64,000 nucleotides of DNA, from the NCBI RefSeq assembly GCF_050320075.1, contig NZ_CP190018.1. The stretch is one strand, 5' to 3'. The position numbers were made by a program, and so were the translations under genes. Below, piece after piece: positions 15,300 to 34,921 of this stretch. The DNA is from Escherichia coli (lineage in GTDB: Bacteria > Pseudomonadota > Gammaproteobacteria > Enterobacterales > Enterobacteriaceae). Within the stretch, counting starts at the first letter, position 1. The number at the start of each line of letters is the position of its first letter. Below the pieces are notes generated by a model. That model was not told the origin of the DNA. It saw only the letters and a program-made list of their open reading frames with translations, and did not search any database.

Positions 15300-15355
15300 G
15301 CCTTTTCCCCTCACCCTAACCCTCTCCCCAGAGGAGCGAGGGGACCGATCGCGCT
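15300..15355. repeat. GC-rich imperfect palindromic intergenic repeat (cctcaccctaaccctctcccc...gaggggaccgatcg family)
   Basis: Same motif recurs at 33861-34015; family name not certain (boxC-like). Confidence 0.5.
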
Positions 15356-15376
15356 CAATGTTGCGATCGGTTTGCC

Positions 15377-32541: not shown

Positions 32542-33858
32542 ATGAAACCGTTACATTATACAGCTTCAGCACTGGCGCTCGGACTGGCGTTAATGGGGAA
32601 TGCACAGGCAGTGACGACCATTCCGTTCTGGCATTCTATGGAAGGGGAACTGGGTAAAGAGGTGGATTCTCTGGCCCAACGTTTTAACGCCGAAAACCCG
32701 GATTACAAAATTGTACCGACCTATAAAGGCAACTACGAACAGAATTTAAGCGCGGGGATTGCCGCATTTCGTACCGGCAACGCGCCTGCTATTTTGCAGG
32801 TTTATGAAGTTGGCACCGCCACCATGATGGCGTCGAAAGCCATTAAACCGGTATATGACGTGTTTAAAGAGGCGGGGATTCAGTTCGATGAGTCGCAGTT
32901 TGTGCCGACGGTTTCAGGCTACTACTCCGACAGCAAAACCGGCCACTTACTCTCCCAGCCGTTCAACAGCTCGACTCCCGTTCTCTATTACAACAAAGAC
33001 GCCTTCAAGAAAGCCGGTTTAGACCCGGAACAGCCGCCGAAAACCTGGCAGGATCTGGCGGACTATGCCGCAAAACTGAAAGCCTCCGGTATGAAGTGCG
33101 GCTACGCCAGCGGCTGGCAGGGCTGGATCCAACTGGAAAACTTTAGCGCCTGGAACGGTCTGCCGTTTGCCAGCAAAAACAACGGCTTTGACGGCACAGA
33201 CGCGGTGCTGGAGTTCAACAAGCCGGAGCAGGTGAAACACATCGCTATGCTCGAAGAGATGAACAAGAAGGGCGATTTCAGCTACGTCGGGCGTAAGGAT
33301 GAATCCACTGAGAAGTTCTATAACGGTGATTGCGCGATGACCACCGCCTCTTCCGGTTCTCTCGCCAACATTCGCGAGTACGCCAAATTTAACTACGGCG
33401 TAGGCATGATGCCTTACGACGCCGATGCGAAAGATGCGCCACAAAACGCCATTATCGGCGGAGCCAGCTTGTGGGTAATGCAGGGTAAAGATAAAGAAAC
33501 TTATACGGGTGTGGCGAAGTTCCTCGACTTCCTCGCGAAGCCAGAAAACGCTGCCGAGTGGCATCAGAAAACTGGTTATCTGCCAATCACCAAAGCGGCG
33601 TATGACCTGACCCGTGAGCAGGGTTTTTATGAGAAAAACCCAGGGGCGGATACCGCGACGCGTCAGATGCTGAATAAGCCGCCGTTACCGTTCACCAAAG
33701 GGCTGCGTCTGGGCAACATGCCGCAGATCCGCGTGATTGTGGATGAAGAGCTGGAGAGCGTGTGGACCGGTAAGAAGACACCACAGCAGGCGCTGGATAC
33801 CGCCGTTGAGCGTGGGAACCAGTTACTGCGCCGCTTTGAGCAGTCTACGAAGTCTTAA
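32542..33858 (+). CDS. ugpB: sn-Glycerol-3-phosphate periplasmic binding protein UgpB
   Basis: 438 aa with signal peptide [23 protein letters not shown]. Confidence 0.95.
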
Positions 33859-33860
33859 TT

Positions 33861-34015
33861 CTCTTACCCTCACCCTAACCCTCTCCCAAAGGGAGAGGGG
33901 ACCGATCGGCGTGGTATCCAGGTGCCGTGTCGGTTTGCAACTTCGCTCGGTGGGAAAGTATGCACCGCCTTTCTCCCTCGCCCCTTTGGGGAGAGGGCCG
34001 GGGTGAGGGGAACAC
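33861..34015. repeat. GC-rich palindromic intergenic repeat pair (ccctcaccctaaccctctccc ... gggagagggccggggtgagggg)
   Basis: Inverted copies flanking about 90 bp between ugpB and ugpA; same family as 15300-15355. Confidence 0.6.
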
Positions 34016-34033
34016 AACACGAAGAGTTTAACT

Positions 34034-34921
34034 ATGTCATCATCCCGTCCGGTGTTCCGCTCGCGCTGGCTGCCCTATTTGCTGGTCGCGCCGCAGCTCA
34101 TTATCACCGTTATCTTTTTTATCTGGCCTGCGGGCGAAGCGTTGTGGTACTCGCTGCAAAGCGTCGATCCGTTTGGTTTCTCCAGCCAGTTTGTCGGCCT
34201 GGATAACTTCGTCGCGCTGTTTCATGACAGCTACTATCTCGACTCCTTCTGGACGACGATAAAATTCAGCACCTTTGTCACCGTCAGCGGTTTGCTGGTG
34301 TCGCTGTTCTTTGCGGCGCTGGTGGAGTACATCGTGCGCGGCAGCCGTTTCTATCAAACCTTAATGCTGCTGCCTTACGCCGTGGCACCCGCCGTTGCCG
34401 CCGTATTGTGGATCTTCCTGTTTAACCCTGGTCGCGGGCTGATCACCCATTTTCTCGCTGAGTTCGGCTACGACTGGAACCACGCGCAAAACAGCGGTCA
34501 GGCGATGTTTCTGGTGGTGTTTGCCTCGGTGTGGAAGCAAATTAGCTACAACTTTCTGTTCTTCTATGCCGCGCTGCAATCCATTCCCCGTTCGTTTATC
34601 GAAGCCGCAGCCATCGACGGTGCAGGCCCGATTCGCCGCTTCTTTAAGATTGCGCTGCCGCTTATCGCTCCGGTGAGTTTCTTCCTGCTGGTGGTGAACC
34701 TGGTGTACGCCTTCTTCGACACCTTCCCGGTGATCGACGCCGCCACGTCCGGCGGGCCGGTTCAGGCCACCACGACGCTGATTTATAAGATTTACCGCGA
34801 AGGCTTTACCGGACTGGATCTGGCTTCGTCTGCCGCGCAGTCGGTGGTGTTGATGTTCCTCGTCATCGTGCTGACGGTGGTGCAGTTCCGCTATGTTGAA
34901 AGCAAGGTGCGTTACCAATGA
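34034..34921 (+). CDS. ugpA: G3P ABC permease UgpA
   Basis: 295-aa membrane protein. Confidence 0.9.

Follow-up and report, generated by a model that had tools for sequence, protein, structure and literature searches.

Three copies of a GC-rich palindromic motif in a 64,000-nucleotide stretch of Escherichia coli DNA (the window) almost certainly belong to BoxC, a repeat family known also as PIT elements or TMECO, judging from their sequence and flanks. Two of the copies form an inverted pair in the spacer between ugpB and ugpA, where E. coli K-12 carries a BIME instead. A single intercistronic site is occupied by either a BIME or a BoxC pair, both within E. coli and across genera.

Motif copies and family identity

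The earlier note on this DNA had described a GC-rich repeat at two intergenic sites, arranged as an inverted pair in the ugpB–ugpA gap. Both observations hold: there are three copies (Table 1), the two sites lie between annotated or long open reading frames (ORFs) of the ORF list, and the inverted arrangement proves to be a type A copy paired with a type B copy. The 20-mer CCTCACCCTAACCCTCTCCC occurs exactly at 15309–15328 and 33868–33887 on the plus strand and with three mismatches at 33989–34008 on the minus strand, three matches against 0.00 expected from 100 dinucleotide-preserving shuffles of the window. A repeat finder independently returned the direct pair 15302–15341/33861–33900 and, at 87% complementarity, the inverted pair 15305–15342/33975–34012. 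The common motif proposed in the earlier note stood in part, as its core is present in all three copies but its 'gaccgatcg' tail follows only the first ugp arm and the copy at tusA–zntA; flanks differ between type A and type B elements, which accounts for the tail being found after just two of the three. Elsewhere in the window, the direct repeats 24371–24670/26481–26780 and 25343–25478/27459–27594 (73–74% identity, 2,110–2,116-nt spacing) presumably represent the paralogous binding-protein genes livJ and livK, going by K-12 gene order.

Uniqueness to these two sites would have told against a repeat family; the motif is instead dispersed and multicopy in E. coli. A genome-wide blastn search with the ugp spacer matched 5,400 of 5,426 complete E. 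coli genomes, at a median of 21 places per genome. At least 80% of the spacer was covered in 1,506 genomes, a figure that the ugp allele does not explain because only 317 genomes have it; these matches are assumed to be joined arm matches at other BoxC pairs, and the figure was left unused.

BoxC was described as a palindromic repeat of E. coli in the 1990s (Bergler 1992; Bachellier 1999). Hoyne and Maher (2000, 2002) came upon it again and named it the 'potential intrastrand triplex (PIT) element', as recounted in PMC4666352, where Holder et al. (2015) gave the same family the name TMECO. Its consensus is CCCTCNCCC-N3-6-GGGNGAGGG-N3-GGGNGAGGG, and 23 copies are listed for K-12 MG1655 (Table 1 of PMC4666352), in keeping with the 22–32 copies of a stem-loop survey in which BoxC is a known E. 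coli family (PMC2267715). Subtypes are set by the second loop, TTA in type A and CCG in type B; the copies are always intergenic, and closely spaced inverted copies are A+B combinations in all five K-12 pairs (PMC4666352). A regular expression for the consensus matched both ugp copies without substitution (33867–33899, minus strand; 33975–34009, plus strand) and the tusA–zntA copy (15308–15342, minus strand) with one. The second loop is TTA in the tusA–zntA copy and the first ugp arm and CCG in the second ugp arm, and the ugp pair thus obeys the A+B pairing rule, as do 10 of the 11 orthologous pairs in other genera.

All 23 K-12 copies were retrieved and aligned with those of the window, each turned the same way round. 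Across the 17 type A copies in the alignment the 5' flank is roughly aaaaa.GtGCaC(3–5 nt)CGGTC, and many type A copies have the 3' flank GAACAGGCC.GCAC; the nine type B copies share the 5' flank GCAC..TTTTCT. Each ugp copy bears the flank proper to its own type. K-12 TMECO #9 adjoins fabI, formerly envM, the gene at which BoxC received its name. The guess in the earlier note that the repeat was 'boxC-like' was therefore sound, resting now on the published consensus, the flanks and orthology with TMECO #16; since that guess was right, the family was already known. Among catalogued consensus sequences BoxC fits, and REP half-sites number zero. An Rfam scan of the ugp spacer returned no family at its gathering score, the best matches reaching 15–20 bits, far below it.

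Table 1. Positions of the BoxC copies, their flanks and the neighbouring genes in the window; BoxC assignments follow consensus, flanks and orthology
Feature	Position	Strand	Sequence	Basis
BoxC/TMECO type A copy (tusA–zntA), one extra substitution	15308–15342	−	Minus strand: CCCTCGCTCC TCT GGGGAGAGGG TTA GGGTGAGGG	Regular expression; K-12 orthology
Flank of tusA–zntA copy	15343–15376	.	Starts GACCGATCG	Equals type A 5' flank consensus
ugpB, periplasmic glycerol-3-phosphate binding protein, upstream gene	32542–33858	+	Stop codon 33856–33858	ORF list; RefSeq annotation of identical DNA
Whole 175-nt ugpB–ugpA intercistronic spacer, BoxC-pair allele	33859–34033	+		Fold; 317/5,426 genomes
BoxC/TMECO type A copy, perfect hairpin	33867–33899	−	Plus (mRNA) strand: CCCTCACCC TAA CCCTCTCCC AAA GGGAGAGGG	Regular expression, 0 substitutions
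Type A 5' flank	33900–33913	−	GACCGATCGGCGTG on plus strand	Fits ..GCaC(3–5)CGGTC of 17 type A copies
Locus-specific inner spacer, single copy in genome	33914–33961	.		81-nt query, one match per genome
Type B 5' flank	33962–33974	+	GCACCGCCTTTCT	Nine type B copies
BoxC/TMECO type B 'mm' copy	33975–34010	+	CCCTCGCCCC TTT GGGGAGAGGG CCG GGGTGAGGGG	
ugpA translation-initiation region	34011–34033	+	Shine-Dalgarno-like GAAGAG at 34021–34026	Sequence; centroid structure
ugpA, membrane permease, downstream gene	34034–34921	+	ATG at 34034	ORF list; RefSeq annotation

The tusA–zntA copy

Two convergent genes, tusA (end 15275) and zntA (minus strand, end 15377), leave a gap of 101 nt that contains the single copy. 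This copy is the orthologue of TMECO #16 (K-12 3,608,684–3,608,719), from which it differs by one base, and which the supplement of PMC4666352 places between zntA and tusA. The adjoining flank is predicted to form an 8-bp hairpin, CCGATCGC/GCGATCGG. This allele is the usual one, found with a 401-nt query in 5,146 of the 5,426 complete E. coli genomes. Other arrangements occur at the locus. Strain N96 (L103:185–770) lacks the BoxC core and has the GACCGATCGCGCTCAAT flank together with a BIME and a 102-aa hypothetical ORF, so a type A flank can exist without its core. Some E. coli genomes, such as that of strain Rb-3 (L104:185–480), have a three-REP BIME directly after the BoxC element.

The ugpB–ugpA spacer and its alleles

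The two ugp arms are not identical copies of each other, being of different types with different flanks. The first has the TTA/TAA loop and the flank GACCGATCGG; the second, 36 nt long, is identical to K-12 TMECO #3 (Table 1 of PMC4666352). They stand head-to-head, their C-blocks and 5' flanks pointing towards each other across the 75-nt gap between the cores. K-12 pair 17+18 (lldD–trmL) has the same orientation, and the other four K-12 pairs are tail-to-tail. The inner 81 nt of the spacer are single copy and found only at the ugp locus of 317 genomes, so the pair is best described as two elements with locus-specific DNA between them, and the idea that the ~150-nt unit is itself a multicopy composite or MITE was rejected.

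The BoxC-pair allele is a minority allele. A 771-nt megablast query covering the full window allele found it in 317 of the 5,426 complete E. coli genomes, and the 81-nt inner-spacer query found the same 317, with one copy in each; all other sampled E. coli genomes have a ugpB–ugpA allele of K-12 length. Strain CFSAN061763 is among the carriers, matching the window at 100% identity over both the 771-nt ugp query and the 401-nt tusA–zntA query. The K-12 spacer is 97 bp long and consists of two inverted REPs, i.e., a BIME, without BoxC, which explains why the ugp pair is missing from the 23-copy K-12 table. The K-12 and window spacers cannot be aligned, the whole spacer having been replaced, and the REP consensus half-sites (GCCGGATG... 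and ...CTTATCCGGCCTAC) number two in the K-12 spacer versus zero in that of the window. The flanking ugpB and ugpA coding sequences are 96–100% identical to K-12 per 50-nt window, except that the last 50 nt of ugpB match at 44 of 50 positions. Because the coding flanks are ordinary E. coli sequence, the allele difference is confined to the spacer, and recent import from another genus with long flanks was rejected on the same grounds. A K→Q change near the UgpB C terminus is found with both allele types in other genera. The GTDB E. coli representative, SCPM-O-B-8794 (L018), has a third, 100-nt BIME allele, whose left REP (GCCGGGTGGAGGCTGCGCCTTACCCGGCCTAC) is nearer the Citrobacter type than the K-12 type. 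A literature search found no ugp-specific description of the ugpB–ugpA spacer.

Spacers across Enterobacterales

A scan for UgpB in one genome per species gave 80 Enterobacterales loci, and the spacer could be extracted from 79. A BoxC pair in the orientation and order of the window is present in 11 of these, in the genera Pseudocitrobacter, Superficieibacter, Phytobacter, Pluralibacter, Kluyvera, Leclercia, Enterobacter and Buttiauxella. In all 11 a C-rich unit follows directly after the ugpB stop, of type A in every case except one Enterobacter sp. (L035), whose unit has a CGG loop, and a G-rich type B-like unit (CCG, TCG or CAG loop) lies 5' of the ugpA ribosome-binding site (RBS). Single BoxC-derived hairpins occupy a further 4–5 of the 79 spacers and REP/BIME sequences 27, with one spacer bearing both BoxC and REP/BIME; the remainder hold other hairpins or, in Yersinia and Serratia, long palindromic elements. 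Both alleles can be found within one genus in Escherichia, Enterobacter, Buttiauxella and Pseudocitrobacter. At the RBS-proximal end, the window spacer (GAACACAACACGAAGAGTTTAACT) is much like the Kluyvera BoxC allele (GAAAACAACTCAGAGTTTAACT). Over the 1.5 Mb of the 80 loci, BoxC motifs occur in 18 loci, all from Enterobacteriaceae genera; the sampled loci of Yersinia, Serratia, Erwinia, Pectobacterium and Dickeya yielded none.

Some of these spacers have diversified further. In Superficieibacter, Enterobacter sp., Kluyvera and Buttiauxella (L021, L035, L036 and L058) tandem duplications have lengthened the interior of the BoxC pair to 188–308 nt, the unit being a partial BoxC hairpin with a GGGGACTGTCCGG-type flank. 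The Yersinia and Serratia spacers (L075, L080, L085, L086 and L094) share a long palindromic element, GCCAGTCTGGGATTGGGCAGTGCTCG ... GCGCTGTCCGCACCCAGACTGGC, that from its sequence looks like a genus-specific MITE at the same intercistronic site.

Predicted RNA structure

RNA folding of the ugpB–ugpA spacer, proposed as a check in the earlier note, gave −88.2 kcal/mol (z = −4.4). In the mRNA (plus) strand the A arm is predicted to pair with the B arm to give a single long, branched stem-loop, the TAA/CCG loop difference leaving a small internal loop in the A:B helix. The GAAGAG sequence lies outside the long helix in the centroid structure, and the RBS of ugpA is uncovered. The significant fold belongs to the paired spacer alone. 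The type A arm can form a local 9-bp hairpin (33879–33899, −18.7 kcal/mol), and taken singly neither arm folds significantly better than its dinucleotide shuffles (z = −1.6 and −0.9), because C-run/G-run composition alone gives structure. The K-12 BIME allele is predicted to fold into a ~24-bp hairpin (−49.4 kcal/mol, z = −6.7).

An intrinsic (Rho-independent) terminator at ugp was considered and rejected. No T-tract follows the A-arm hairpin or the A:B helix, the sequences that follow being GACCGATCGG and GAACACAAC, and the hairpins do not pass the terminator scan. The scans called no terminator-like or sigma-70 promoter-like site in either of the two spacers scanned.

Predicted structure is also a feature of the site in other species. 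The 79 ugpB–ugpA spacers have a median z of −4.6, and 84% have z < −2. As a control, long ORFs were called in the same 80 loci and all gaps of 50–320 nt were folded. The median z was −4.97 for ugpB–ugpA gaps (n = 74), −2.25 for other co-directional gaps (n = 265), −3.5 for convergent gaps (n = 56) and −0.9 for divergent gaps (n = 60). The ugpB–ugpA gaps are thus more structured than other co-directional gaps (one-sided Mann–Whitney p = 2e-12, a value that overstates independence because the 79 species are phylogenetically related). This contrast between predicted folds shows persistence of structure and is not proof of selection, as palindromic repeats favour intergenic DNA.

Dimorphism at other BoxC loci

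Presence/absence variation is not peculiar to ugp. Among the 5,426 complete E. coli genomes, the full K-12 allele is found in 2,913 at adk–hemH, 2,099 at pstA–pstB, 3,744 at alx–sstT and 2,826 at fimH–gntP, and five of six BoxC loci are dimorphic. TMECO loci were found to be more variable than control loci in 56 strains and were associated with 'genomic instability' (Holder et al., PMC4666352), an association that is reproduced here on a hundred-fold larger sample.

The comparison of alleles bears on how the element might move. At pstA–pstB, where K-12 has a BoxC copy within the pstSCAB–phoU transport operon, K-12 (L013:440–560) and ABU 83972 (L099:230–250) differ by a clean 92-nt BoxC indel flanked by an 8-bp direct repeat, AACCGTGT, and the insert contains a third AACCGTGT; the repeat could be a target-site duplication or the mark of a microhomology-mediated deletion. 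No target-site duplication was seen at adk–hemH, alx–sstT or fimH–gntP, so a direct repeat of the kind expected of a MITE is found at one of the four polymorphic loci compared, and at ugp the whole spacer is replaced. BoxC resembles MITEs and ERIC/IRU-type elements in being small, non-coding, palindromic, dispersed and presence/absence polymorphic, and differs from MITEs in having no consistent target-site duplication; the single-copy inner part also sets the ugp pair apart from them. We know of no RAYT-type or other cognate transposase for BoxC. As DNA, BoxC is probably a selfish or neutral palindromic element.

The alx–sstT locus shows further variation. AH21B066 (L100:130–330) has a 75-nt deletion between the CCCTCTCCC blocks of its two BoxC arms that leaves a single hairpin, an instance of what Holder et al. 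(PMC4666352) describe as the 'palindrome effect'. ECOR29 (L102:251–416), BL21-type strains and others have an unrelated, longer spacer in place of the BoxC pair, which in ECOR29 contains a sub-threshold match to the Rfam TwoAYGGAY RNA (RF01731; 36.6 bits against a gathering score of 43, E = 4.5e-4).

Possible roles of the ugp pair

By analogy with REP sequences, the ugp pair may serve as a barrier to mRNA decay, a reading that is put forward tentatively and rated at somewhat below an even chance. The BoxC pair would be transcribed inside the ugpBAECQ mRNA and would fold, from 8 nt past the ugpB stop, into a very stable stem-loop that leaves the RBS of ugpA free. It would then act like the REP/BIME hairpins of binding-protein-dependent transport operons, passively holding up 3'→5' exonucleases and perhaps serving as a leaky roadblock to transcription as well. 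The ugpB part of the message would persist longer than the distal ugpAECQ part, and more binding protein would be made than membrane components. REP/BIME-like behaviour seems the likeliest because the pair would lie within the ugpBAECQ transcript, just 3' of the binding-protein gene. REP/BIME sequences occupy the same kind of position, directly after a periplasmic binding-protein gene, and the K-12 BIME and BoxC-pair alleles of ugp are each predicted to form a long GC-rich RNA hairpin without a T-tract, although the two families have no sequence relationship. The classical intercistronic REP cases are malE–malF and hisJ–hisQ, and mRNA stabilisation has been shown for some REPs. Liang, Rudd and Deutscher reportedly found in 2015 that REPs interfere with translation termination within a certain distance of the stop codon, and the ugp hairpin, at 8 nt, presumably falls inside that distance. 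When co-transcribed, REPs are reported to protect upstream mRNA by blocking 3'→5' exonucleases and may be leaky roadblocks, and their stabilising effect is context-dependent and absent with several reporters (bioRxiv 10.64898/2026.03.23.713779).

The spacer fold, the K-12 BIME at the same position and the structured spacers predicted in 79 species make an mRNA-decay barrier plausible, and the K-12 BoxC copy in pstSCAB–phoU also lies within a transport operon. The idea of the earlier note that the repeats may stabilise or attenuate transcripts inside the ugp operon is plausible on the same evidence; the lack of a T-tract and the negative published assays speak against it. The same strongly structured spacers could merely mark a site that is tolerant of palindromic insertions. 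The BoxC pair may instead be a neutral passenger, a selfish or junk element that landed in or recombined into a permissive gap with no selected effect on ugp expression. This is possible, if on balance improbable. The TMECO family has no bias to gene classes, operon positions or ORF distances (Holder et al., PMC4666352), and PIT elements acted neither as promoters nor as terminators and left RNA polymerase unaffected in vivo in the reporter assays of Hoyne and Maher, as summarised in the same source. Moreover, 94% of E. coli genomes lack the BoxC pair at ugp, and presence/absence dimorphism is seen at adk–hemH, pstA–pstB, alx–sstT and fimH–gntP. Three observations sit poorly with a neutral passenger, however: sites without the BoxC pair nearly always bear another strong hairpin, the ugpB–ugpA spacer exceeds other co-directional gaps significantly in predicted structure, and the BoxC-pair allele keeps its orientation and layout in at least 10 genera. 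It is likewise conceivable, but rather unlikely, that selection for a stable RNA stem-loop makes the ugpB–ugpA gap a 'hairpin cassette' site, at which unrelated repeat families are interchangeable; its occupants may include the BIME, the BoxC A+B pair, the long palindromic elements of Yersinia and Serratia, and simple hairpins.

Explanations at the level of DNA fare less well. A BoxC unit consists of one C-block and two G-blocks, the first of which is complementary to the C-block, and can therefore form either a hairpin or, in vitro, a triplex of the G-rich strand. A transient triplex of that strand, or a cruciform of the pair, arising in the course of replication or transcription might stall polymerases and make the site a hotspot of deletion and rearrangement, so that its 'function' would be variability itself, but we consider this quite improbable. 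An intrastrand purine-motif triplex was seen in vitro by CD, NMR and polymerase stops with TMECO oligonucleotides of both types, the CD and NMR work including oligonucleotides with and without a mismatch, and the site chosen for in vivo DMS footprinting was TMECO #3, identical in sequence to the ugp type B arm; that footprinting, however, gave no evidence for a stable triplex (PMC4666352). The excess variability of TMECO loci over controls, the dimorphism at five of six loci and the deletion between repeated C-blocks at alx–sstT agree with an unstable DNA structure, yet repeat mobility or recombination explains the variability equally well. The ugp allele is, moreover, stable within its lineage, 316 of the 317 copies sharing 95% identity or more across the inner 81 nt, and the BoxC allele is kept across genera. 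Very unlikely, in our view, is a protein-binding or nucleoid-organising site of the kind proposed for BIMEs with gyrase, IHF and HU. The case is one of analogy: the K-12 spacer is a BIME, and links have been drawn between REP DNA and the structure of the nucleoid (bioRxiv 10.64898/2026.03.23.713779). Against this, BoxC shares no sequence with REP, as the absence of REP half-sites from the window spacer indicates. To our knowledge, no BoxC-binding protein has been described.

Implications

The window copies conform to the BoxC/PIT/TMECO family, with the exact consensus, A and B subtypes, type-specific flanks, intergenic location, ~20 copies per genome and A+B inverted pairs, and there is no difference at the level of the family; the one departure is that the ugp pair is absent from K-12. 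The family, its subtypes, the A+B inverted pairs and the association with variable loci have all been published and are already known. The finding is thus mainly one of correct annotation, and the ugp pair is not to be taken for a new regulatory RNA. The modest addition made here is the occurrence of either a BIME or a BoxC pair at one intercistronic site that is almost invariably structured. The ugpB–ugpA spacer offers a convenient natural allele series for comparing the action of BoxC and REP hairpins on mRNA. Should the gap indeed be under selection for a stable stem-loop with interchangeable occupants, REP-like control of mRNA decay and gene stoichiometry would be the first function for BoxC, despite the negative reporter assays.
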